DNA of 52,887 nt, from positions 1 through 52,887 of the IMG/VR virus record IMGVR_UViG_3300020596_000029; one strand, 5' to 3'. Of this stretch, positions 3,022 through 52,887 are shown piece after piece; the first letter of the stretch is position 1; each line of letters starts with the position of its first letter. This DNA comes from a virus (lineage: Duplodnaviria; Caudoviricetes). The translations under genes and the position numbers were made by a program. The notes beneath the pieces are model-generated. The model did no database searches, was not told the origin of the DNA, and saw nothing but the letters and a program-made list of their open reading frames with translations.

Positions 3022-5033
3022 TGGCAATCGCGTTTGCGAATCTGGGCGCGTCGGCTAACCCGGACATTAACAACAGCACGGATGCAACTTCCTACGCTAA
3101 CACGTCATGGACGCCGCCAACGAGCGGTCTGATTCTGCTTTTTGTTAACTCAAGACGAGCGGCAGCGGTGGACACACCTACCGTATCCGGCAACGGCTTA
3201 ACTTGGGTACAAATTGGTACGACAATCACCCCTGGTTCCGGCTTGGCAGGGTCAGGCTTATCGCTTTTTGCTGCTGATGCCAGCGGCAGTACGGTAGGGG
3301 CGACGACCATTAGTTTCGGGGCCAACACCCAGCTACATTGTACAGCTAGTTTCTTTCATGCCGACGGCGTCGATCTGTCAGGCGGCGTAGCTGCCGCCCT
3401 TGTGCAATCCGTCACGGCGACGGACGGCGCTGTGGCAGGCACAACGGGAACTGTAACGCTGGCCGCTGCGGGCAATTCTAACAACCGTCCCGTAGCGGGC
3501 TTTTTGCACCTTACCAACGAAGTTCACACGCCGCGCGCCAACTGGACAGAAGCCGATGATTTGGGCGGTGCTGGCGGTGCGCGCGGCGTCGAGACGCAGT
3601 ACCGTAGTGACGCCTTCGAGACAACTGCCACCGCGACTTGGGCAACGTCAGCCGGCTGGTGTGGCATAGCCGCCGAACTCAAGGCGACGTTGGGCACAAG
3701 TTACAACCAGAGCGCGGGCGGAACCGTTACCCCCGCAGGCGCGATTAGCAAAGGTATCGCCAAGTTATTTGCAGGAACGTTAACGACCGCCGGTGCGCTG
3801 ATTCGCCTAGTCGCTAAGTTATTCGCGGGGACGCTAACGAGTAGTGGCACACTCATTCGCAACGCAGGCAAAACGCTTGCAGGCACTTTAACAACCAGTG
3901 GAATACTGAGTACGGCTCGAAGTTATGTGCGCTCCTTTGCTGGCACGTTGACGACAGCGGGAAGCCTAGTACGGGCAACGGCGAAGGCTTTGGCAGGCAC
4001 GCTAACGAGTAGCGGCGTTGTGACAAGAGTACGCGGTTATTTTCGCTCCCTTGCCGGAACGCTTACGAGTAGTGGCGCACTAAGCCGTAATGCAGCAAAG
4101 GCACTTGCTGGCACATTAACGAGTAGTGGCGCGCTTACTACCGCGCGCGGTTATGTGCGCTCACTCGCTGGGACGCTCACCAGCGCGGGCGCACTAAGCC
4201 GTAATGCAGCAAAGGCACTTGCTGGCACGCTCACCAGCAGTGGCGTTGTCACAACAGCACGCGCTTATGCCCGTTCACTTGCGGGTACGCTCACCACTTC
4301 CGGCGCATTGCTGCGTACCATCGCTAAGGGCCTTGCCGGAACACTAACGAGCGGCGGCGTTGTCTCAACCGCACGCGGTTACATTCGTTCCTTTGCAGGA
4401 ACGTTAACGAGTAGTGGCACTATCGCCCGCAGCATAAGCAAAGCATTTGGCGGGACACTCACCAGCGCAGGCACGATGGTTCGCAACATCGCTAAACTCC
4501 TGAGCGGCGTGTTAACGAGTGCGGGTGCGCTAAGTACAGAGTTGGCTGGCGGCTTTGCCCAAGCGGTGGGCGGCACGCTTACGCTGGCAGGCGCAATCAC
4601 GCGACAGACTAGCAAGAGCCTAGCAGGTACGCTCTCAAGCGCAGGCAACATCCTACGCGCCATCGCTAAGTCATTTGCTGGCACGTTGACGCCCAGCGGC
4701 ACATTGCAAACGGCGCGCACCTACATTCGCTTATTTGCCGGGACATTGACGACGGCTGGCACGCTGGCACGCAACACGGGCAAGACGCTCACGGGCGCGC
4801 TAGTTCCAAGCGGCGCAATTGCCAGAGCCATCAGCAAAGCCGTCGCGGGCGCGTTGTCGTTTATCGGTACGCTCGTTAGGACGTTGGCGGGTGGAAGTAC
4901 GGCACTGTTGGATGTCACACTCAGTGACAGTGCCGTGAATATAGTAAACCTAGTCGATAGCGCGGTGTACGCCGCGACGTTACAAAGTAGCGCGGTCTAC
5001 ACCGTGACCTTATCAGATACAACGAGGACATAA
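3021..5033 (+). CDS. Gly/Ala/Thr-rich repeat protein, probable virion appendage or fibre
   Basis: N-terminal beta-rich domain, then about 20 copies of (L/F)AGTLT(S/T)(S/A)G in 19-22 aa units. Start overlaps the DUF1996 stop. Confidence 0.6.
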   Translation: MAIAFANLGASANPDINNSTDATSYANTSWTPPTSGLILLFVNSRRAAAVDTPTVSGNGLTWVQIGTTITPGSGLAGSGLSLFAADASGSTVGATTISFGANTQLHCTASFFHADGVDLSGGVAAALVQSVTATDGAVAGTTGTVTLAAAGNSNNRPVAGFLHLTNEVHTPRANWTEADDLGGAGGARGVETQYRSDAFETTATATWATSAGWCGIAAELKATLGTSYNQSAGGTVTPAGAISKGIAKLFAGTLTTAGALIRLVAKLFAGTLTSSGTLIRNAGKTLAGTLTTSGILSTARSYVRSFAGTLTTAGSLVRATAKALAGTLTSSGVVTRVRGYFRSLAGTLTSSGALSRNAAKALAGTLTSSGALTTARGYVRSLAGTLTSAGALSRNAAKALAGTLTSSGVVTTARAYARSLAGTLTTSGALLRTIAKGLAGTLTSGGVVSTARGYIRSFAGTLTSSGTIARSISKAFGGTLTSAGTMVRNIAKLLSGVLTSAGALSTELAGGFAQAVGGTLTLAGAITRQTSKSLAGTLSSAGNILRAIAKSFAGTLTPSGTLQTARTYIRLFAGTLTTAGTLARNTGKTLTGALVPSGAIARAISKAVAGALSFIGTLVRTLAGGSTALLDVTLSDSAVNIVNLVDSAVYAATLQSSAVYTVTLSDTTRT

Positions 5034-7011: not shown

Positions 7012-7694
7012 GCAAGGTAGAACTGCGCGTCGATTGGTGTAACCACGAAGCAGCTAAGTACGCTGTGGAGAAGTGGCACTATAGCTGCAGGATGCCTATG
7101 CCTCCAATACTCAAGATAGGTGCGTGGGAATGCAATCAATTCATTGGTGCGATTTTGTTCGCGCGGGGCAACACGCCGACGCTAGGTCATCGGTACGGAT
7201 TGAAAATGCTGGAAGTTTGCGAGCTGGTTCGCGTTGCCTTGACTAATCATGCTTCGCCTGCGAGTCAGATTGTGTCAGCAGCAATGAAATTACTAGAGCA
7301 TAGTAACCCAGGTTTGCGTCTGATTGTGTCTTTTGCAGACCCCGCGCAAGGTCATAACGGCGCAATCTATCAAGCGATGAATTGGGTATATACAGGCGAA
7401 AGCGAACCATCGTGGCAATGGTTGCACGAGGGGCGTTGGAAGCATAATCGAGAAATGACATCAGGTGCGTTTGGTGGAGCGCGAAAAGTCGCAGACTTAG
7501 CGGTGCTTACCAAGCGTCTGCCGCTTGGTAAGCACCGCTATCTCTACCCGCTTGACCGTGCCATGCGTAAGCAGATTGCACCACTCGCCAAGCCGTACCC
7601 GAAACGTTTACCCCGCGGGCAAAGTGTCGAAGGTGACACGTCCAACGACCAGTTGGAAGAGGCAGGTTCAATCCCTGCTGCCCGCTCTGAATGA
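7008..7694 (+). CDS. mom: Mom-family (GNAT-fold) DNA adenine hypermodification protein
   Basis: Motifs KWHYS, CELVRVAL, LIVSFADPAQGHNGAIYQAMNWVYTG, K.RYLYPL..PYPK. ATGA overlap with the ParB-like gene. Confidence 0.8.
   Translation: MSKVELRVDWCNHEAAKYAVEKWHYSCRMPMPPILKIGAWECNQFIGAILFARGNTPTLGHRYGLKMLEVCELVRVALTNHASPASQIVSAAMKLLEHSNPGLRLIVSFADPAQGHNGAIYQAMNWVYTGESEPSWQWLHEGRWKHNREMTSGAFGGARKVADLAVLTKRLPLGKHRYLYPLDRAMRKQIAPLAKPYPKRLPRGQSVEGDTSNDQLEEAGSIPAARSE
7615..7686 (+). tRNA. Non-canonical tRNA-Gly-like cloverleaf (anticodon ACC, no encoded CCA) overlapping the mom 3' end
   Basis: Acceptor stem GCGGGCA/TGCCCGC plus discriminator T. D arm GTGTC-GAAGGT-GACAC. Anticodon arm TCCAA-CGACCAG-TTGGA. 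Variable loop AGAG. T arm GCAGG-TTCAATC-CCTGC. Confidence 0.75.
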
Positions 7695-7751
7695 CTAATA
7701 AATTGGATATATTGCGCGATGGCTAGAGGCAACACAGATAAGTACACGATA
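7692..7751. repeat. 60-bp exact direct repeat B, copy 1 (copy 2 at 9325-9384); carries the start of terS
   Basis: TGACTAATAAATTGGATATATTGCGCGATGGCTAGAGGCAACACAGATAAGTACACGATA occurs twice. Confidence 0.95.
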
Positions 7752-7775
7752 CAAGCATGTCAAGAGGCCAAATGA
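7719..7775 (+). pseudogene. Truncated duplicate of the terS N-terminus (MARGNTDKYTIQACQEAK)
   Basis: First 11 codons identical to terS. Stop overlaps the ATG at 7772. Confidence 0.6.
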
Positions 7776-9331
7776 CTGAGAAGATAAGCAAGGCAAATTT
7801 AGCCGACATCCACTTCGATAAGTCGAACGCGAACAAGAGCAGCGAACGTGGGCGCGGCATGATCGAAGCGTCTATGCGTGAGTTTGGCTTTGCCGACGCC
7901 GGAACACTCGACCGAAATAATGTCATAATTGGCGGAAACAAGCGCACGGAGGTAGCGGGTGAAATTGCGCTAAGTGACGAGGCTATCATCATAGACGTGG
8001 ATGGCACGAAGCCTGTGTACATTCGGCGCAATGACCTTGACCTGAGCGACCCAGAGGATGACAGGGCGCGCAAACTTGCCTATGCGCTGAATCGCACAAG
8101 TGAAGTGTCTATGACTTGGGACACCGAGCAACTCCTAGCCGACATGGGCGCGGGGCTTGACCTGTCGGGCATGTTTCGCGAGGACGAGCTAGACGCGATG
8201 CTGGCGGGGATGATGCCTGAGCCTATGACCGACGCGGGCGCGCAGGTGGATAAGGCAGACGAGTTGCGCCAAAAGTGGGGCGTTGAGTTGGGCCAAATGT
8301 GGCAGCTTGGCGAGCATCGGCTGATCTGCGGCGATTGCACAGATGCCGAGGTGGTGGCAAGGGTGATGCAAGGCGAGAAGGCTGTTTTGTGCCACGCCGA
8401 TCCGCCATACGGCATGGGCAAGGAGAATGAGGGCATCGCCAATGACAACCTGTATCGCGAGAAGCTAGACGCCTTCCAGATGGCATGGTGGCACGCGTGC
8501 CGTCCTGCGCTTGAGGACAATGCCAGCGCGTACATTTGGGGCAACGCTGAGGGCCTGTGGCGACTATGGTATTGCAGTGGATTGCGCGACAGCGAACGAT
8601 TGACGTTCCGCAATGAGATTGTCTGGGACAAAGGCGGCGGTGGATTTGGCGTTGGGACTGAGGGGTTACGCTGCTATTTCCCAGAGGAGCATTGTCTGTT
8701 TTTTATGTTGGGCGAGCAGGGATTTAACAACAACGCCGACAACTATTGGGAGGGGTGGGAGCCGATACGCGCCTATTTGGACGACGAACGGCTCAAGATG
8801 GGGTGGAATAATAAATTTGTTGCCGATCTATTCGGTTTCCATCCGAGAATGGCAGATCATTGGTTCAATATTTCGCAATGGTCAATGCCGAAAGACGAAC
8901 AATATAAACGGATGCAACAAGCCGCACGCGGCGACGCCTTCAAGCGGGACTATGACGACCTCAAGCGGGACTATGACGACCTCAAGCGGGACTATGACGA
9001 CCTCAAGCGGGACTTCTACGCCACGCGTGCCTACTTCGACAACGCCCACGACAATATGACCGACGTGTGGCGTTTCAACCGCGTGCATAACGAAGATCGA
9101 TATGGTCACGCCACGCCCAAGCCCGTTGATATGATTGCGCGAGTCATCAAGAGTAGCACGCCAGAGGGGGGCATCGTTTACGTTCCCTTCGCGGGGACGT
9201 TGCCAGAGGTGATCGCCTGCGAGCAACTTGGGCGCAAGTGCCGAGCCGTGGAAATAAGTCCCGCCTACGTCGCCGTTGCCTTGCAACGCTTTGCTGATTC
9301 GACAGAAAAAACGTGTGTGCTAGTTGACTAA
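7772..9331 (+). CDS. ParB-like domain fused to an N6-A/N4-C DNA methyltransferase
   Basis: ParB-like N-terminus, HRLICGDCT, catalytic DPPY, HATPKP, and degenerate SAM-binding VPFAGT. Confidence 0.9.
   Translation: MTEKISKANLADIHFDKSNANKSSERGRGMIEASMREFGFADAGTLDRNNVIIGGNKRTEVAGEIALSDEAIIIDVDGTKPVYIRRNDLDLSDPEDDRARKLAYALNRTSEVSMTWDTEQLLADMGAGLDLSGMFREDELDAMLAGMMPEPMTDAGAQVDKADELRQKWGVELGQMWQLGEHRLICGDCTDAEVVARVMQGEKAVLCHADPPYGMGKENEGIANDNLYREKLDAFQMAWWHACRPALEDNASAYIWGNAEGLWRLWYCSGLRDSERLTFRNEIVWDKGGGGFGVGTEGLRCYFPEEHCLFFMLGEQGFNNNADNYWEGWEPIRAYLDDERLKMGWNNKFVADLFGFHPRMADHWFNISQWSMPKDEQYKRMQQAARGDAFKRDYDDLKRDYDDLKRDYDDLKRDFYATRAYFDNAHDNMTDVWRFNRVHNEDRYGHATPKPVDMIARVIKSSTPEGGIVYVPFAGTLPEVIACEQLGRKCRAVEISPAYVAVALQRFADSTEKTCVLVD
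8138..8212. repeat. 75-bp exact direct repeat A, copy 2
   Basis: Identical to 6832-6906. Confidence 0.95.
8940..9014 (+). repeat. 21-bp in-frame tandem repeat, about 3.5 copies (KRDYDDL)
   Basis: Unit TCAAGCGGGACTATGACGACC. Confidence 0.95.
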
Positions 9332-9384
9332 TAAATTGGATATATTGCGCGATGGCTAGAGGCAACACAGATAAGTACACGATA
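9325..9384. repeat. 60-bp exact direct repeat B, copy 2
   Basis: Identical to 7692-7751. Confidence 0.95.
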
Positions 9385-15250: not shown

Positions 15251-15293
15251 GGATTTTGTAGGCAGTTTTGACGACATGCCCAGGTCGATTAGG

Positions 15294-19273: not shown

Positions 19274-19657
19274 ATGGCAGAAACCGCAGAAGGCGGAGTC
19301 TATAGAAACGCATCAGGCGTCGGGTATCACGATGCCAACGGCAAGCCCGTTGAGGCGGGCAAGGTCAGCGAGGCAAAAGAGATGCAGCGCAAAGAGTCGC
19401 AAACCAAAATGGCGACCTTGACACCGATTCCTTCGCAGTCCAGCGAGGCATTGGCTGCCGCCATGCGTAGTTTGCTTGTGCCGCAACAGCCAACAAGCGC
19501 GCCTAATACCAACAATGCGCCTGAAACCAACGCGGACACAGGCGACTTGACGCCTGAAACCAACGCGGACACAGGCGACTTGACGCCTGAAACCAACGCG
19601 GACACAGGCGACTTGACGCCTGAAACCGAACGGCGTGCGCGTAATCGACAGGGTTAA
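19274..19657 (+). CDS. Hypothetical protein with TPETNADTGDL repeats
   Basis: AGGA RBS; directly after the capsid gene. Confidence 0.6.
   Translation: MAETAEGGVYRNASGVGYHDANGKPVEAGKVSEAKEMQRKESQTKMATLTPIPSQSSEALAAAMRSLLVPQQPTSAPNTNNAPETNADTGDLTPETNADTGDLTPETNADTGDLTPETERRARNRQG
19518..19627 (+). repeat. 33-bp tandem repeat, about 3.3 copies
   Basis: Unit CGCCTGAAACCAACGCGGACACAGGCGACTTGA, no spacers. Confidence 0.95.
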
Positions 19658-30682: not shown

Positions 30683-30952
30683 ATGGCGGGTAATATAAGC
30701 ATAACGATAGGGAGCAATACCTTCACGTTGCCACTGGCCGCAACGAACGCTCAGATAGGCTCGGCCCTCACGCGTTACGCGCGTAGCCTGGGCATCTCCA
30801 CCGCTGGCACGAACGCCGAGAGCATGACGGCTATCCTGGAACACATACGCGACGACATTAGACGCCGCTCTAAAGACGCGCAACTGGCGGACATCGAAGC
30901 GGCACAGGATGCTGCCAACCAAGCGACTGTCGATGCAGACAATCCGTTGTAG
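30683..30952 (+). CDS. Small fibre-associated protein
   Basis: GGAGG RBS; last late gene. Confidence 0.6.
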   Translation: MAGNISITIGSNTFTLPLAATNAQIGSALTRYARSLGISTAGTNAESMTAILEHIRDDIRRRSKDAQLADIEAAQDAANQATVDADNPL

Positions 30953-30986: not shown

Positions 30987-31034
30987 GTGCGGCTATTCGA
31001 TTGCGCCATGCTCAGGGCGTTGCTGTGTTCTGTG

Positions 31035-31241
31035 CTATTCCTCACCGCCAGTGAGGTTCTCGACGATGATGTCGATTGCCTCCTGCTCGGTGAGGCAGTT
31101 GACCGTCTCGTCGTTGCAGGCGACCCAGAATTTACCCTCCAGGTCAAGCCCCACCATCAAGTCTCCGCCAATTAGACGGCCTATTGTGTCGGCGCGCTCT
31201 ACAGATTCCTCTGCTATTCTGCGTGCTTGTTGCTCGTTCAT
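31035..31241 (-). CDS. Hypothetical early protein
   Basis: GAGGAG RBS; acidic 68 aa. Confidence 0.7.
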   Translation of the reverse strand: MNEQQARRIAEESVERADTIGRLIGGDLMVGLDLEGKFWVACNDETVNCLTEQEAIDIIVENLTGGEE

Positions 31242-31285
31242 GGTTTTTGTCTCCTCTTGTGCATGTGGTTGATTGCGCTAGTTGA

Positions 31286-31624
31286 TTACTCGTCGGCTAC
31301 CTCGATGGCTTCCAAGTGGTCAGCTACCTGTCGCCATGTTGTGCCGATGCCCCGGAAACTATGGGCGGGGCCGGCGTCTAAGCGGTAGAATCCCTTGATG
31401 CCGTTGGTTTCCAGTAATCCTACGTCGCTGCGGTTGGCAGCAACCCATTGTTGGAGCCACGATTGCGTGATACTGCGGGGTTGATTGTTGTTCATGTTCA
31501 TGTTCTCCTCTTGGGTGACAAGTGTGTCTAGCAGTTCTATCATCGTGACTTCGTAGCGTGCTGCTAGTACCTTGAGCCGTCGTCGTGTGCTGTCCAGTAC
31601 TTTGATGGTGGTTACGTCGTTCAT
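31286..31624 (-). CDS. RHH-like protein in frame with a second domain that has its own RBS (internal start 31501)
   Basis: AAGGAG RBS. TTIKV..STRRRLKVLAA..TMIELLD. Internal GAGGAGAACATG. Confidence 0.6.
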   Translation of the reverse strand: MNDVTTIKVLDSTRRRLKVLAARYEVTMIELLDTLVTQEENMNMNNNQPRSITQSWLQQWVAANRSDVGLLETNGIKGFYRLDAGPAHSFRGIGTTWRQVADHLEAIEVADE

Positions 31625-31815
31625 TTGTATTCTCCTTCGAGTTCGCGCATGGCTGCGACGGCATCCCGGCGGAAGGCCGCCAGCTTGTCGCCGAGCTTGA
31701 GCGTGAACGATTTTGGCTTTGGCCCGGCACCGGGGCGCGAGCCACCGTTGTTTGTGCGCTGGTCGGCGGCGCGCACTTTGGGTCGCGCGCCGCCGTGGTT
31801 GGAAGATGCGTTCAT
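31621..31815 (-). CDS. Small basic protein with GGARP/GGSRPGAGPKP motifs
   Basis: ATGA overlaps on both sides. Confidence 0.6.
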   Translation of the reverse strand: MNASSNHGGARPKVRAADQRTNNGGSRPGAGPKPKSFTLKLGDKLAAFRRDAVAAMRELEGEYK

Positions 31816-32087
31816 CGGTTTTCCACTGCGTCAAAAAAGTCAGAGAAAAGTTGCGCCTCCGCCTTTGGGCTTGTTTTCGGCATGGCGTTGAATTCGTCCT
31901 CGGTCATCGGGCGAATCTGACAGAACCAAGACATGCCCTCTGGGCCATTCATCTTCTTGACCGAATCGACCACAAACCATTCGTCGGTCTTGTGTGACTG
32001 GTAGAAGTCTCCAGCCGAAATGCTCTTGTGATGCCAGTGACCGTTTATGATGGTGCCATCTGCCGATTGGTAATATCCGGGTCTCAT
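31812..32087 (-). CDS. Hypothetical early protein
   Basis: GAGGAG RBS directly after hammerhead 1. Confidence 0.7.
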   Translation of the reverse strand: MRPGYYQSADGTIINGHWHHKSISAGDFYQSHKTDEWFVVDSVKKMNGPEGMSWFCQIRPMTEDEFNAMPKTSPKAEAQLFSDFFDAVENR

Positions 32088-32102
32088 TGTGTTTCTCCTC
32101 TA

Positions 32103-32157
32103 GGTGTTTCGGCCTTCGTTCCGGCCTTCGTCAGTAGCGCCGATTGCGCTAGACACC
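32103..32157 (-). ncRNA. Type III hammerhead ribozyme 1
   Basis: GGUGUC^UAGCGC-AAUCG-GCGCUA-CUGACGA-A-GGCC-GGAACGAA-GGCC-GAAA-CACC. Confidence 0.9.
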
Positions 32158-32183
32158 GAGCAGTTTTGCGACTTGCCCAGGTC
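32157..32183 (-). ncRNA. H-type pseudoknot motif, copy 1
   Basis: GAC-CUGGGCA-AGUC-GCAAAAC-UGCUCG. Confidence 0.7.
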
Positions 32184-32190
32184 GGCGTGA

Positions 32191-32733
32191 TTATTTGGCT
32201 TCAGCAACGATCTCGTTTTTGTTGTCAACGATTACGTCCGTACCATCGCGGTGAGTTTCGGTGAACTCAGCATCCCAGCCATTTTCTTGCGCCAGTTGTA
32301 TCAGGTCTGCGACGGTGGTTTCGGCTGCCTCGTTGCCGTAACGGTCGTTGACGATTGTGTAGATTTTTATTTCTTCTTCGATTTCGCGCATGGCGGCGAT
32401 GGCGTCACGGCGATGGCTCTCGTAGTCTGCGTCATTGCCCAACCGCACACTGTAATCTGCAATGCGCTCGCGCACGTCGCCGATGTCAACGCCCAGCTTG
32501 GTAGCCAGTGCCTCGACCTCTGCGTCGGTGGCCTCGCTGTCACTGATATATCTGGCCCACCAGTCGTAGGTGTGCTGGCTGGCGATGTAGGCGTTTTCTT
32601 CCTCCGACCAGACAAACTGGCCGTCGCTGAGTGCGCCTGTGTTGCCAATGAGGTCGGCGACCCAATTGACGCCGTTGTCGCTAATGATGGTCAGGTCTGT
32701 GCGCTCGTTGGTTTCTGTGATGATGATGTTCAT
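32191..32733 (-). CDS. Acidic hypothetical early protein flanked by hammerheads
   Basis: AAGGAG RBS; 180 aa. Confidence 0.8.
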   Translation of the reverse strand: MNIIITETNERTDLTIISDNGVNWVADLIGNTGALSDGQFVWSEEENAYIASQHTYDWWARYISDSEATDAEVEALATKLGVDIGDVRERIADYSVRLGNDADYESHRRDAIAAMREIEEEIKIYTIVNDRYGNEAAETTVADLIQLAQENGWDAEFTETHRDGTDVIVDNKNEIVAEAK

Positions 32734-32753
32734 TTTGGTTCTCCTTTTGGCTA

Positions 32754-32807
32754 GGTGTTTCGGCCTTCTGGCCTCATTCAGCGCCGGTCAATTTCCGGTC
32801 AGACACC
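32754..32807 (-). ncRNA. Type III hammerhead ribozyme 2 (core variant CUGAAUGA)
   Basis: GGUGUC^UGACCGG-AAAUUGA-CCGGCG-CUGAAUGA-GGCC-AGAA-GGCC-GAAA-CACC. Confidence 0.8.
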
Positions 32808-32833
32808 GAGCAGTTTCGCGACTTGCTCAGGTC
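32807..32833 (-). ncRNA. H-type pseudoknot motif, copy 2
   Basis: GAC-CUGAGCA-AGUC-GCGAAAC-UGCUCG. Confidence 0.7.
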
Positions 32834-32840
32834 GATTTAA

Positions 32841-33173
32841 CTAAACCAGTTTTTTGTTCTTGAGGTCGTCAATCAATTTTGACGCCTCGACGGAGGTGAG
32901 TCCGCGAGCAACCATCGCTCGCAAATTGTGGATGGCCTCGAAGGCCTGAGCCTTCAGCGTTGAAAGAGTAATCGGATTGCGACGAAGGCGAATGTTCAGA
33001 AGTTCAGCGTACCACAGCGAGACCTGGCCCTCAAGCATTTGGATTTTCACTTCGGACCCTCCGTTCTGGCGTAATTCCTCAATTGTGACTTCCAGTCCAG
33101 CGAAATAGGGAGCCGATTCGATTCCGTCAATCATGCTGTTGATATAGTCGAGTTGCTTCTGTGTGGCGGTCAT
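32841..33173 (-). CDS. Hypothetical early protein
   Basis: AAGGAG RBS; AT.KQLDYI..LT..EASKLID.L motif. Confidence 0.75.
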   Translation of the reverse strand: MTATQKQLDYINSMIDGIESAPYFAGLEVTIEELRQNGGSEVKIQMLEGQVSLWYAELLNIRLRRNPITLSTLKAQAFEAIHNLRAMVARGLTSVEASKLIDDLKNKKLV

Positions 33174-33219
33174 TTTGTTTCTCCTTTTGGCTAGTGGTTC
33201 GTTTGTCGTCCTTGATACC

Positions 33220-33256
33220 ATTCTACCACAAGTCAGACCCGATTGCAATAGGCAAA
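33220..33256 (-). promoter_or_regulatory. Early promoter TTGCAA-N17-TAGAAT, extended -10, upstream TTTGCCTA
   Basis: Read directly on the minus strand. Confidence 0.7.
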
Positions 33257-33304
33257 GTGACGAGTTTTGAATATTCGTTGCTGTGCGTTGGACGATGCCA
33301 AACC

Positions 33305-33820
33305 CTATCTGCGGCTAGTCCCCTGCCCTGGCCGCTGCGTGAGTGTGGCGCGAGTGTCGAAAAATAGCGACAGTGGCGCACGCTTCGCGGGGTTGTTGTA
33401 GCCCCATTTGCCACCCACCCAATTGTAGCTAAGTTTCCCCCATTTGGGTTCGCATTCGTAGTAGCACCACGCAAAGTGGATGCCATCCATGCCGCTTGAC
33501 GCTACCAGGTGCGCGTAGTTAGCCCACGGATGCCGTTCCCATTCAGGCGGGAACGTGTGCATCCAGTCAGCCGCGACAGGGGTCGCCGCGTGCTGTGCGA
33601 CTGCGAGGGCATCGCTCACCTCCTGTTTGTCCATCGCTTCTACGCACTTGGGGCAGTAGTCGCGCCGTATCGCCCCCTTCCAACCGCCACCCACTATGCT
33701 CCGCACCCATCCTGTGCGTTTCGCCTCTGTCCTTGCCGCCCGTGGCGACAACTCGTGCGCGGCAAAGTGTACCGCGCCGCACTTGTCGCAACTTACTCGG
33801 TAGCCACGCTCAAGAGCCAT
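33305..33820 (-). CDS. Hypothetical protein with CxxC pairs
   Basis: CDKCG...YCPKC; part of an overlapping gene chain. Confidence 0.6.
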   Translation of the reverse strand: MALERGYRVSCDKCGAVHFAAHELSPRAARTEAKRTGWVRSIVGGGWKGAIRRDYCPKCVEAMDKQEVSDALAVAQHAATPVAADWMHTFPPEWERHPWANYAHLVASSGMDGIHFAWCYYECEPKWGKLSYNWVGGKWGYNNPAKRAPLSLFFDTRATLTQRPGQGTSRR

Positions 33821-34154
33821 CGCCCACCCCCTTCCATCCCGCCGGCAGCGCGTCCAACCAGGTGCGCACCGTCAAATAGTCGTCGTGCAGTTGATCCGGC
33901 ATGTTGCCAGCATCGTCGCCGAACATCCCCGCCAACCGATTCAGCACGCGATCCATGGCATCGGCTGCGTCTTTTGGCACACTCACCACCTCGCGCTCAG
34001 TGGCGCGGCAGAGGCGCACGTCACTAGGCAGAGTGTCTCCCCAAACCCCAAAATCTTCACTGACAAACATAGAGATTTCGGTGTAGTTCTCGACAGAGAT
34101 TTCGGAGAAACTACCCTGTTCGATTGGCTGCCACGTCGTCACTGTTGCCATCAC
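33810..34154 (-). CDS. Hypothetical protein
   Basis: Overlapping gene chain with RBS. Confidence 0.6.
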   Translation of the reverse strand: MMATVTTWQPIEQGSFSEISVENYTEISMFVSEDFGVWGDTLPSDVRLCRATEREVVSVPKDAADAMDRVLNRLAGMFGDDAGNMPDQLHDDYLTVRTWLDALPAGWKGVGDGS

Positions 34155-34513
34155 GCCACCCCCTCATTTTCTTCCGTGCCATCCAAACAATCGACGCACA
34201 TTGGTTGCCACTGCCCGCGTTGCGCCTCGTCGAGCTGTGCGCGCAGGCTGTCGAGCTTGGCTTCGTAAATTTTGCAATACATCTCCGCAAGGCTGGTCGC
34301 TTGCAGAACTTCAATGTACGGCTCATTTTCTTTGAGGTAGCCCTTTGGCGTTTGGCAATTGATCATGTCTCTACGCACACGTTCACTCGAAACCAACGGC
34401 TCCACCGCTTCGCGTGCTGCCTTGTAGCCCTCGCTGTAGCCTAGTCCCCGTTCATAGTGGAGAGCATCATTCAACTCCTGTTGCTCGGTCATTGTGTCAA
34501 TCCCTGCAACCAT
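34151..34513 (-). CDS. Hypothetical protein
   Basis: Gene chain; alternative start at 34492. Confidence 0.55.
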   Translation of the reverse strand: MVAGIDTMTEQQELNDALHYERGLGYSEGYKAAREAVEPLVSSERVRRDMINCQTPKGYLKENEPYIEVLQATSLAEMYCKIYEAKLDSLRAQLDEAQRGQWQPMCVDCLDGTEENEGVA

Positions 34514-34556
34514 ACGAAGCCTGGGTGCGTGGCGTCTAGTCGGCTATGGTGGGTGA

Positions 34557-35297
34557 TTAGGCTTCGATGGGCGTCGCATCTTGCGCGACTTGCACGAGGC
34601 GGTCTTGAAATTTCTTGTCAAGCCCTTTGATGAGTTTTTTGGCTTCCGCGTCATAGAGTTGGTTTATTGTGTTTCGCGCTCCCTGGCTGCACCACTCGGC
34701 ACTCTTAGCTTTGTTCGCTTCCCATTCGCCGTCACCCGGATATGCGAGCATCCCCAGCCGGTTGATTTCCTTCAATTGGTCTGCGTTCGCACGCGCTCGC
34801 GTTGACGCTGGCTCCTCAATAGGCTTGCTCGCGGCCTTTGCCTGTTGCGGCTTGGCAGCATCCTGCGCGGCTTCTGTTTCGTGTTCGCCGTCCTCATTGC
34901 CTACCCCTACATTGAGGAGCTTGGCGATGAAATACTTATGGCCGCTGGTAATAGCTTTGTACATCGCTTTGTCAGGTACAAAAAAGTCTGAACCACGACC
35001 TGCCCAAAACGCCATGAGTTCGCTTTCCCCGTCCATGATAAGCATCTCGAAATTGACGATGGCGTCATAACGCGTCTTGGCCTTGCCATAGCCATCAGTA
35101 TAGGAGATTTCCGTCACCGACTCATTAACGATGCGTGGCAGTATGACAATGCCCTGATTACTCAACGCGTCCCCGGCACGTTGCAGAATCTTATCAGCCG
35201 AAATGTAGGAGTAGTTTTGCGCCGTATTTATCTTGTCTGGCATCAAAGCACCGACGGCAGTTGAGGCGGCGGCAAGTTTTGCAATAAGTGTGTTCAT
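34557..35297 (-). CDS. ERF-family single-strand annealing protein
   Basis: NYSY.S...I, G.G.D...DKA.YKAIT.G.KY, ED.E motifs. Confidence 0.85.
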   Translation of the reverse strand: MNTLIAKLAAASTAVGALMPDKINTAQNYSYISADKILQRAGDALSNQGIVILPRIVNESVTEISYTDGYGKAKTRYDAIVNFEMLIMDGESELMAFWAGRGSDFFVPDKAMYKAITSGHKYFIAKLLNVGVGNEDGEHETEAAQDAAKPQQAKAASKPIEEPASTRARANADQLKEINRLGMLAYPGDGEWEANKAKSAEWCSQGARNTINQLYDAEAKKLIKGLDKKFQDRLVQVAQDATPIEA

Positions 35298-36279: not shown

Positions 36280-36537
36280 CTATGCTAATTTCTGGAAATT
36301 TGCGATGAACTTCCATTCGTTCGTTTCCTCCGCCCAGTGGCATCCTGCGCCGTCCCATGTGCCGTTTTGGTTGTCTACGCTGAAGTCACGCGTGATGGCG
36401 TCGATGTGGCGGTACTGGTTGCCGTGTCGCCCTTTCTCCCACTTCAGCGAGACAGAGAGGACGATGTAGACGACACCGTATTCGTTTTTGTATTGCTCCC
36501 CCTTTTTGACTATCGGTTTCTCGCTGATGACGTTCAT
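36280..36537 (-). CDS. Hypothetical protein
   Basis: GAGGAG RBS. Confidence 0.7.
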   Translation of the reverse strand: MNVISEKPIVKKGEQYKNEYGVVYIVLSVSLKWEKGRHGNQYRHIDAITRDFSVDNQNGTWDGAGCHWAEETNEWKFIANFQKLA

Positions 36538-36548
36538 GTGTGGCTCCT

Positions 36549-36575
36549 CAAGCAGTTTTGTGACTTGCTTAGGTC
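36549..36575 (-). ncRNA. H-type pseudoknot motif, copy 3 (no hammerhead), abutting the SD
   Basis: GAC-CUAAGCA-AGUC-ACAAAAC-UGCUUG, with a compensatory A-U replacing G-C. Confidence 0.7.
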
Positions 36576-36589
36576 TGGTAGTGGGTGGG

Positions 36590-36886: not shown

Positions 36887-36933
36887 ATTGTAGCACGTAT
36901 GTAGCACCATGTCAATAGGCAAAATAGGCAAAA
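36887..36933 (-). promoter_or_regulatory. Early promoter TTGACA-N17-TACAAT with tandem TTTTGCCTA upstream
   Basis: Read directly; GTGCTACA occurs twice. Confidence 0.85.
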
Positions 36934-39789: not shown

Positions 39790-40872
39790 ATGCAAAAGAT
39801 CACAAAACTTACCGCAGAGCAGGAGTCGTTGTTGCCCGCGTGGGCAGATAAATGGACAAGCATTGGCCTATCATGCGAGCCGTTGAATTATGACGCCGCT
39901 GTAGATGCGGCGAAACGAGCTTATGCCGCCGCCAGTCTCCCCGCACCCGAACGCTTTGTCGTGTGCGACGGGCCTTTTAGTGGCGCAATTGTCGCCGCAA
40001 TTCTAATGACGGGTATCCCAGCCGGCGTTCGGGCCAGCGTTCGGGCCGGCGTTCGGGCCAGCGTTGGGGCCAGCGTTCGGGCTGGCGTGTTGGACAGCGT
40101 TGGGGCCAACGTGTGGGACAGCGTGTGGGATAGTGTTCGGGACAGCGTGTGGGATAGTGTTCGGGCTGGCGTGTGGGCCAGCGTTCGGGACAGCGTTCGG
40201 GACAGCGTGTGGGATAGTGTTCGGGCTGGCCTTCGGGATAGCGTTTATGGCGCGCATGATGCACATTGGCTCGGCTTTTATGATTTCTTCCTCTCTAATT
40301 GCGGATTGGCTGAACAAGTCGCCCCGTTGCAACCGCTGATTGATCTGGCCTCGCATTGCGGCTGGTGGAGTCCATACGCCAATGTATGCATCCTCCAGCA
40401 TCGCCACTGTGAGTTGCACCGTGACCCTGAGGGTCGATTGCACAATGCCAATGGCCCTGCCGTACTCTATCGCGACGGATGGGGCGTTTGGGCTTGGCAT
40501 GGCGTTCATATTCCCATCGAAAAAGCGTGGATTATCGACGATCCGAATCGCATTGATGTGGCAGCCATTGATGGCGAGCGTAATGCCGAAATTCGCCGCG
40601 TGATGCTGGAACTTTTTGGCCATGATAGATACATTGTTGAGAGCGGCATGAAGCCAGTTCAGACAGACACATATGGCGAATTGTTTCGGCGTGAAATTGC
40701 AGACGACGAGCCTCTGTGTATGGTGCGCGTGGTCAACAGCACGCCCGAATCAGATGGCGAATTGAAAAAATATATGTTACGCGTACCGCCCACCATGCAG
40801 ACGGCACACCAGGCGATTGCATGGAGCTTTGACATGTCTGCGGCCGAATACGCACCAATGGCAGAGTCGTAA
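39790..40872 (+). CDS. DUF6745-like protein with tetrapeptide repeats
   Basis: xSV(R/W) repeats; [35 protein letters not shown] motifs. Confidence 0.75.
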
Positions 40873-52120: not shown

Positions 52121-52887
52121 ATGAAAAGTCTGCTTTACGGCCTGCATGACATAGAAGCCGCCCCCCATGTTCCGCGGGGGGGATGGTGCGTTGACGTGGT
52201 TGCCCTGTCTGAGAATCCGCAACCTACTGACTATACAGCCCTAAGAGCCGATGTGAATTGGATAGTTAGATTGTCGTGGGGCTACGGCTCGACAGGCACA
52301 ATTCCGATGCCAAGTGGCTATCAGAACTTCGCGAACGCCTGCGCCAACTATGTAGCCAAGAGCCAGGGTGCAAACATTTGGATCATCGCTAACGAGCCTA
52401 ACGGCGAATGGGAGCGGCCTCACGGCACTTACATCACGCCTGCAATGTATGCAGAGTGTTTCGCCAAGTGCCGCAACGCTATCAAGCGCGGCAATCCCAA
52501 CGCTCGCGTCATCCCCGCACCGTGCGCGCCCTACCATGCTAGCCCGTCAAACTGGCTAGACTATTGGCGCGACATGCTTGGCTATATCGCGGCGAATGGC
52601 GGCTGTGACGGTATCGCCGTACACGCCTACGTGCGGTCTAGCAACCCTGCGGATATTGACAGCGGTGCCAAGATGGGGCCGCCGCTCGAAAAAACATACA
52701 GCGGCTTTCGCACCTACGAAGACGCGCTGGACGCTGTGCCGATGGCGCTCGGCAACTTGCCAGTATACGTTACGGAGTTCAATGAGTTGCTTGACGGTGG
52801 ATGGGATGACCGCAATACAGGCGTGGTGCAGGCGGCATACGAAAATGTCAACGAGTGGAACAGCCGGTCGGATAGGGAAGACCGCTT
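52121..52887 (+). CDS. Endolysin, N-terminal part (runs off the end and continues at the window start)
   Basis: MKSLLYGLHD..WIIANEPN..AVHAY..YVTEF; no stop codon. Confidence 0.85.
   Translation, partial: MKSLLYGLHDIEAAPHVPRGGWCVDVVALSENPQPTDYTALRADVNWIVRLSWGYGSTGTIPMPSGYQNFANACANYVAKSQGANIWIIANEPNGEWERPHGTYITPAMYAECFAKCRNAIKRGNPNARVIPAPCAPYHASPSNWLDYWRDMLGYIAANGGCDGIAVHAYVRSSNPADIDSGAKMGPPLEKTYSGFRTYEDALDAVPMALGNLPVYVTEFNELLDGGWDDRNTGVVQAAYENVNEWNSRSDREDR
52447..52887. repeat. Terminal direct repeat, copy 2
   Basis: See 1-441. Confidence 0.95.

Follow-up and report, generated by a model that had tools for sequence, protein, structure and literature searches.

The window analysed here is the whole of the IMG/VR virus record IMGVR_UViG_3300020596_000029, a linear record of 52,887 bases whose completeness is estimated by CheckV at 71%. 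On its minus strand we found two type III hammerhead ribozymes, which bracket an open reading frame (ORF) of 180 aa and are each fused at the 5′ edge to a small conserved pseudoknot. Judging from the sequence, they are probably variant hammerheads placed between the cistrons of a leftward early operon that the host polymerase transcribes, and their self-cleavage would convert the transcript into gene-length mRNAs. The hammerheads themselves had been described in an earlier note on this DNA and hold up well; the note had overlooked both the pseudoknot attached to each of them and the prior publication of such an arrangement. The two ribozymes are the following:

Hammerhead A, type III: 32807..32754, minus strand; core CUGAAUGA; predicted cut 32802/32801.
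Hammerhead B, type III: 32157..32103, minus strand; core CUGACGA plus an extra A; predicted cut 32152/32151.

From 5′ to 3′, copy A is laid out as GGUGUC / UGACCGG-AAAUUGA-CCGGCG / CUGAAUGA / GGCC-AGAA-GGCC / GAAACACC and copy B as GGUGUC / UAGCGC-AAUCG-GCGCUA / CUGACGAA / GGCC-GGAACGAA-GGCC / GAAACACC. As the earlier note had it, the GUC site, the GAAA and stems I to III are all present on the minus strand in each copy. After the GAAA comes CACC, paired with GGUG, and the cleavage triplet is GUC, with C17 at 32802 in copy A and at 32152 in copy B; G12, A13 and A14, the A15.1-U16.1 pair and a triplet of the NUH type are found in both. The core (32781..32774 in copy A, 32134..32127 in copy B) is 8 nt long in both copies versus a consensus of 7 (C3 U4 G5 A6 N7 G8 A9, then G10.1), and all the named bases are present; the catalytic core bases, A15.1-U16.1, G10.1-C11.1 and the GUC are intact in both copies. 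The one-base core insertion claimed for both copies does exist; its position is not the same in the two, the extra base standing after A6 (or at N7) in copy A, CUGA-A-UGA, and between A9 and G10.1 in copy B, CUGACGA-A. Stem I is wholly different between the copies and paired in both, on which sequences and folds agree: in copy A it is UG(A)CCGG/CCGGCG with the A bulged, in copy B UAGCGC/GCGCUA, a perfect helix. The minimum-free-energy fold of both 68-nt stretches is a three-way junction in which stems I and II are closed by loops and stem III is open, and the window has two matches to the pattern made of core, stem II and GAAAC, versus none in 100 dinucleotide shuffles. Each hammerhead ends just upstream of a Shine-Dalgarno sequence (SD), at a distance of 7 nt in copy A and 2 nt in copy B, and the start codons that follow are ATG 32733 and ATG 32087, respectively. 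A double cut would free a piece of 650 nt, 32801..32152, which holds an SD and the complete 180-aa ORF (32733..32191), as previously proposed.

Several observations weigh against reading the two copies as working ribozymes. Stem I of copy A is bulged and has a U-G closing pair, and the Watson-Crick complementarity between the loops is merely 2 nt in copy A and 3 nt in copy B. The Rfam covariance check suggested in the earlier note gave a divided answer. Neither copy was reported by Rfam when the whole window was searched at gathering score, or in a 951-nt scan at E ≤ 10. In 101-nt scans RF00008 was the sole family reported and was aligned over its full length (model positions 1-54) with both copies, at scores (A: 22.2 bits, E = 0.006; B: 27.7 bits, E = 1.7e-4) that lie below its gathering cut-off of 48.5 bits. 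The same is true of a related hammerhead at another locus (L002, 35.6 bits). Furthermore, an insertion after A6 ("A6a") has been measured with low activity (Perreault et al., 2011, PMC3088659), and the CUGA-A-UGA of copy A can be read as such an insertion. Finally, nearest-neighbour folding of the 5′ element together with the ribozyme, which cannot model the pseudoknot, favours in both copies an alternative hairpin, GACCU/GGUGUC, by 3.6 kcal/mol over the fold in which the ribozyme is forced; this hairpin excludes stem III. It could trap the 5′ product after cleavage, gate the cleavage itself, or be an artefact of ignoring the pseudoknot.

On the other side stands the comparison with other phage hammerheads. 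A relaxed-pattern scan returned at least 118 stretches, which are the basis of a set of distinct type III hammerheads, and a covariance model, R2, was built from 16 of these phage hammerheads, with the window, its relatives and L002 left out. Run over the whole window with filters off, R2 gives 49.2 bits to copy B (E = 2.5e-11) and 24.0 bits to copy A (E = 2.5e-4), the next best score being 12.3 bits; part of these scores is built in, given that the training sequences were picked by the window's own core, stem II and GAAAC pattern, a pattern that leaves stems I and III, the GUC and G8/A9 free. The alignment covers model positions 1-55 in both copies, and neither R2 nor a further model, R1, found a third hammerhead in the window with filters off. 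Over 100 sources R2 yielded 40 matches. Among 38 distinct sequences of the class, 93.7% of the cells are paired, versus 64.1% in shuffles and 34-46% with slid partners, a margin that is large even though the alignment was fitted to R2 and so favours structure; both sides change in 12 of the 15 pairs. As to the loops, a complementarity of 3 nt or less is found in 27 of 36 distinct class members (1 nt in one, 2 nt in 11, 3 nt in 15, 4 nt in 8 and 5 nt in one). This distribution makes the values of the two copies uninformative, and the idea of a loop 1-loop 2 pseudoknot within the hammerheads was dropped.

Both core variants are found in other hammerheads. An NGA core with one extra base before stem II, as in copy B, occurs in 22 of the 25 distinct type III hammerheads among the matches listed, the extra base being a U 18 times, an A 3 times and a G once. 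The hammerhead of the viroid CChMVd, plus strand, has an extra A10 between A9 and G10.1 and suffers a moderate loss of rate; a U at this place is 3-4 fold faster (De la Pena and Flores, 2001, as summarised in the review PMC3705267). Copy B has exactly the same extra A, and U is the commonest base in the phage class. The viroid hammerhead, however, belongs to a circular RNA that replicates in chloroplasts, whereas copy B is DNA-encoded in a phage operon. Searches for the core of copy A returned one locus from the viral scan (L245) and 66 stretches from a metagenome scan. In 13 of 15 distinct R2-aligned sequences CUGAAUGA stands directly against stem II; 12 of these are unrelated to the window and differ in stems I, II and III. 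Their alignment has 95.8% of cells paired versus 65.4% in shuffles, and an SD plus ATG follows directly after several to many of these hammerheads. The A-type core is thus a recurrent natural form. Low activity is reported for the A6a example of Perreault et al. (2011); here the variant recurs in at least 12 other independent sequences, which suggests that it is under selection. Copy B should be the faster ribozyme; because an insertion after A6 is of the type measured elsewhere as slow, copy A is by analogy probably slower and may cut slowly or only conditionally. Since both core variants recur in natural, covarying hammerheads, we regard the two copies as real members of the hammerhead ribozyme class, with cleavage itself predicted.

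Related contigs have kept both copies, there flanking unrelated genes. When IMG/VR was scanned with exact patterns, the A module (54 of 54 nt identical) turned up in L001 in three copies and in L003 and L004 in a single copy, and the B module, again identical, in L004. In L001 the A modules flank ORFs of 102 aa and 134 aa, which have no BLASTP link (E ≤ 1e-5) to the 180-aa ORF of the window. The L002 variant shares stem III but not stems I and II, and its core is CUGAUGA+U. In this class it is common for small genes to be surrounded by ribozymes in tandem. Type III hammerheads stand in pairs or triplets, separated by a few hundred nt, in L079 (1-55, 494-547 and 820-874), in L008 (9398-9452 and 10016-10069) and in the three copies of L001; L037 has two, at 2809-2865 and 7866-7920.

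The 26-28 nt directly 5′ of the hammerheads are 94% identical between copies A and B, and belong to an element of which the window holds four copies:

Pseudoknot copy A: 32834..32807, minus strand; CGAC-C-UGAGCA-A-GUCG-CGAAAC-UGCUCG; 6 nt after the stop codon; G32807 common with hammerhead A.
Pseudoknot copy B: 32184..32157, minus strand; CGAC-C-UGGGCA-A-GUCG-CAAAAC-UGCUCG; 6 nt after TAA; G32157 common with hammerhead B.
Third pseudoknot copy: 36576..36549, minus strand; without a hammerhead; overlaps at its 3′ end with the SD GAGGAG of an ORF starting at 36536.
Fourth, variant pseudoknot copy: 15287..15259, minus strand; CGAC-C-UGGGCA-U-GUCG-UCAAAAC-UGCCUA.

The fourth copy has a U as loop 2 and an additional base in loop 3; 6 nt separate it from a preceding TAG, and ATG 15250 follows shortly after it, in a patch of small minus-strand ORFs among plus-strand structural genes. 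The layout in the window is that of an H-type pseudoknot, S1a CGAC - C - S2a UGAGCA - A - S1b GUCG - CRAAAC - S2b UGCUCR, and the family form can be written as S1 CGAC/GUCG, a loop-1 C, S2 YRAGCA/UGCUYR and an A-rich loop 3. Scans in which parts of the motif were left free found it in dozens of unrelated phage contigs of widely varying base composition (loci L124-L244). With both strands of S1 free, 44 of 54 distinct matches are perfectly complementary, in 9 triplet combinations (GAC/GUC 23, AAC/GUU 9, AUC/GAU 5, UGC/GCA 2 and five others once each), and the loop-1 C, although free in the scan, is invariant in all 44. A formal count over 52 rows, about 10 of them likely chance matches, gives 90.8% paired for S1 versus 79.7% in shuffles and 22-35% with slid partners. 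For S2 the combinations are GCA/UGC 23, GUA/UGC 15, AUA/UAU 2, GUA/UAC 1 and ACA/UGU 1, with 2 non-complementary. With two helices in the order S1a-S2a-S1b-S2b and compensatory changes in each of them, the comparison of sequences identifies the 28-nt element as an H-type pseudoknot.

The setting of the element was surveyed in 77 distinct contexts. An upstream ORF could be assigned in 58, and in 27 of these the stop codon lies 6-9 nt before the GAC of the motif. Seven contexts have a U-run downstream of the motif, 24 have an SD plus start codon no more than 36 nt away, and in 5, every one from the phage group of the window, a hammerhead follows. The proteins that flank the pseudoknot are unrelated, and its pattern is present in merely 6 species-representative genomes, all of them metagenome-assembled. 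R2 run over 63 pseudoknot loci found a single weak hammerhead match, not adjacent to the motif (L152, 26.5 bits). Around copies A and B no Rfam family matches the pseudoknot at E ≤ 10, and at gathering score 20 motif loci totalling 140,674 nt gave two tRNAs only. A literature search with the exact pseudoknot strings and keywords, judged by title and abstract and with subscription journals outside its reach, returned nothing on the motif. These comparisons make the pseudoknot a candidate new RNA family, and it is the most original item of this analysis.

Two other readings of the element were tried and rejected. One frame through it can be read as D-L-S-K-S-Q-N-C-S, with three common variable sites at third codon positions. 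A coding role was rejected on account of stop codons just upstream in the window, the lack of a consistent start, and double changes (GAAUA/UAUUC, AAACA/UGUUU and, in S1, AAC/GUU) which keep the pairing and change the residues. The distance to the preceding stop codon may be 6, 7, 8 or 9 nt; no frame is therefore kept, and a readthrough or frameshift signal was rejected. Nor did the element show any defining feature of an integron attC, a CRISPR-repeat mimic or a tmRNA or 16S mimic, readings at which no test was aimed.

The operon that would contain the ribozymes is outlined by the following features:

Sigma-70-like promoter, TG-extended, TTGCAA-17-TAGAAT: 33248..33220, minus strand; consensus match, 9/12.
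Upstream ORF, 110 aa: 33173..32841, minus strand; stop TAG 32843..32841; sub-threshold Pfam match to DUF3072 only.
Bracketed ORF, 180 aa, acidic: 32733..32191, minus strand; SD AAGGAG 32746..32741; stop TAA 32193..32191.
Downstream ORF, 91 aa: 32087..31812, minus strand; SD GAGGAG 32100..32095; no Pfam or PHROG family.
Terminator-like site, possible operon end: 30868..30849, minus strand; the sole one on this strand downstream of the promoter in a consensus scan.
Another sigma-70-like promoter: 36915..36887, minus strand; from the consensus scan.

The minus strand is the coding strand of all genes between about 30.7 and 37.2 kb, and both hammerheads lie on this sense strand. The region encodes an Erf-like recombinase (34557..35297) and small ORFs without a family match, and from the sequence its layout resembles a leftward early operon. 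The promoter-like site at 33248..33220 would drive the operon with both hammerheads. It is weak on its own, the promoter scan having found 4 sites versus 3.7 expected from shuffling. The consensus scan found no terminator-like site on the minus strand between this promoter and 30868, and from the positions of promoter and terminator the order in the transcript would therefore be the 110-aa ORF, hammerhead A, the 180-aa ORF, hammerhead B, the 91-aa ORF and more small ORFs. A PHROG search gave no match for the 110-aa protein; for the 180-aa protein Pfam and PHROG gave no family and ESM Atlas no usable match, and an ArdA-like role, considered by analogy with the Agrobacterium tumefaciens array discussed below, was rejected as being without support. 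The record as a whole, which encodes an SPP1-type portal, a tape-measure protein, a GH108 lysin, a DNA methylase and an HNH-helicase, is an uncultured contig of a siphovirus-like phage. Positions 31000-35000 have no DNA match in the GenBank phage set (blastn, distant mode).

The record contains other repeats. Two identical 60-nt direct repeats, 7692-7751 and 9325-9384, flank the DNA methylase ORF (7772..9331) almost exactly, perhaps as the borders of a cassette that is mobile or has been duplicated. At 39989-40280, within the ORF 39790..40872, a 12-nt unit (GCGTTCGGGCCA-like) is repeated about 17 times in tandem; the C-terminal part of this ORF matches DUF6745. A periodic array of 114-nt repeats occupies 3774-4783 within the large ORF 3690..5033, and three exact repeats spaced by 33 nt are found at 19518-19627, in or next to the ORF 19274..19657. 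The ends of the record, 1-300 and 52447-52746, form a 300-nt direct repeat with 91% identity, which may be a diverged terminal repeat or reflect the assembly of two variants.

That the early transcript processes itself into monocistronic units, as the earlier note had supposed, is supported by comparison, namely by the fold, the class membership and the position in the operon. In the mechanism that we favour, each ribozyme would cleave itself after C17 (32802/32801 and 32152/32151) during or after transcription, and the polycistronic RNA would be divided into mRNAs of gene length. At its 3′ terminus the upstream product would carry the compact pseudoknot and then GGUGUC with a 2′,3′-cyclic phosphate, which would probably hinder 3′ exonucleases. 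The downstream product would have a 5′-OH and open with the folded ribozyme body, the SD following 7 nt (A) or 2 nt (B) further on. A stable 36-nt segment (z ≤ -1.5) stands directly 5′ of the ribozyme in 18 of 55 distinct phage hammerheads versus 10 of 52 control windows (Mann-Whitney p = 0.035 for the 5′-edge stability, with mononucleotide shuffles). On this weak trend in folding predictions, such ribozymes may generally be built with a structured element at their 5′ edge.

Other explanations start from the same observations. The hammerhead fold might be kept without useful cleavage in vivo, the copies acting as mRNA stabilisers, translation insulators or protein-binding sites, or being decaying relics. 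Consistent with this, both cores depart from CUGANGA, the A6a type is slow in vitro (Perreault et al., 2011, PMC3088659), the Rfam scores are sub-threshold and nearest-neighbour energies put the competing hairpin below the ribozyme fold. We nevertheless think it unlikely. The catalytic bases, the two flanking pairs and the GUC named above are intact in both copies, the CChMVd hammerhead with its extra base after A9 is active (PMC3705267), and both variant cores recur in many independent sequences in which every core base is kept and the stems covary; this recurrence points to selection on the catalytic core and not on the helices alone. The hairpin can also be seen as a switch. Cleavage would then be gated by competition between the 5′ pseudoknot and GACCU/GGUGUC, the ribozyme folding once stem 1 of the pseudoknot forms or once a ribosome terminating 6 nt upstream melts the hairpin, and processing would be coupled to a factor, a ligand or the translation of the upstream gene. 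We give this little credence. It is true that the hairpin excludes pseudoknot stem 1 as well as stem III, in both copies, that the pseudoknot is real, covarying and highly conserved in sequence, that elsewhere it precedes U-runs (7/77) or an SD plus start codon (24/77), like one sensor with several expression platforms, and that a stop codon at a distance of 6-9 nt recurs in the 27 of 58 contexts mentioned above. However, complementarity between GAC and GUC is nearly automatic at a GUC site and two further pairs suffice, so that the hairpin could be due to chance; the L002 hammerhead has the same GGUGUC without a pseudoknot, and in most other contexts GACC is unpaired with the downstream flank. 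To our knowledge, moreover, a 28-nt motif would be smaller than any known aptamer. The broader version of this idea, in which the pseudoknot is a new and widespread class of phage cis-regulatory RNA that senses a ligand, a protein or the ribosome and acts through a U-run terminator, an SD or a gated hammerhead, seems to us improbable. The same holds for its particular consequence here, that allosteric or translation-coupled hammerheads would switch between a fold with pseudoknot and ribozyme and an inhibitory hairpin that sequesters the cleavage-site strand.

The earlier note had gone further and proposed a circular, translatable mRNA resembling a retrozyme, formed when RtcB or reverse ligation joins the two ends of the 650-nt piece. 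The 5′-OH and 2′,3′-cyclic phosphate ends left by hammerheads are indeed substrates of RtcB, which counts in favour of a circle. Back-joining 32801..32152 would, as claimed, rebuild a hammerhead at the junction, which is copy A exactly, the GGUGUC and GAAACACC being common to both copies. In L001 the three identical copies would give two circle-type units, of 534 and 522 nt. On the other hand, RtcB was not found in the virus record, at its estimated 71% completeness. In a partition-function fold of the 650-nt piece the 3′ GGUGU pairs with the 5′ ACACC at a probability of about 0.06, versus 0.5-0.7 for pairing into the adjacent upstream element, and the conserved pseudoknot next to the 3′ terminus is in keeping with an end that stays linear and protected. 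Each of the bracketed ORFs closes with an ordinary stop codon, and these ORFs are not the same from one relative to the next. An earlier search was negative as well: spliced and circular products of prophage arrays were considered and neither was detected, a statement made as data not shown (Perreault et al., 2011, PMC3088659). Nor does the locus look like a plant retrozyme, a retrotransposon without coding capacity whose hammerheads lie in long terminal repeats (LTRs) of about 350 bp and for which circles have been shown (Cervera et al., 2016, PMC4918200). Retrozymes and viroid-like RNAs resemble it in that a unit of about 600-1000 nt lies between two direct type III hammerheads and has ligatable ends after a double cut; here, however, the unit is a protein-coding cistron with an SD and without LTRs, the repeat being a pseudoknot-plus-hammerhead module of about 80 nt and the core a 180-aa ORF. 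Taken together, a circular mRNA appears highly improbable.

The closest precedent for the processing reading is found in prophages, where arrays of hammerheads flank single genes and cleave in vitro, also in polycistronic constructs of about 2 kb; three arrays were cleaved in vitro and one, from A. tumefaciens, in vivo (Perreault et al., 2011, PMC3088659). As here, several intergenic hammerheads on the sense strand bracket single genes of varying identity in phage DNA, and the role proposed there was to turn long phage transcripts into gene-length mRNAs, circular products being raised too. The differences are that both copies in the window have one-base core insertions, that a pseudoknot is fused to each ribozyme, and that our locus belongs to an uncultured siphovirus-like contig without a DNA match in the GenBank phage set. 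The arrangement of ribozymes flanking a phage gene is already known; what is new is the pseudoknot abutting each hammerhead. In synthetic insulators of the RiboJ type, an engineered hammerhead is placed just upstream of the ribosome binding site and its cleavage gives a standard 5′ end. Here, in contrast, the arrangement is natural and includes a 5′ pseudoknot, which the upstream product would keep.

According to a review (de la Pena, 2017), what the many hammerheads of phage and bacterial DNA do is still an unsettled question, and as one more case of ribozymes flanking a phage gene the locus leaves the overall picture unchanged. It offers a compact test bed, 1.4 kb with a promoter, three small genes and two ribozymes, each a different natural core variant with its own fused pseudoknot. 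Protection of the 3′ end by the pseudoknot, or gating of the cleavage by it, would explain how the cuts can raise, and need not destroy, the expression of both neighbours.

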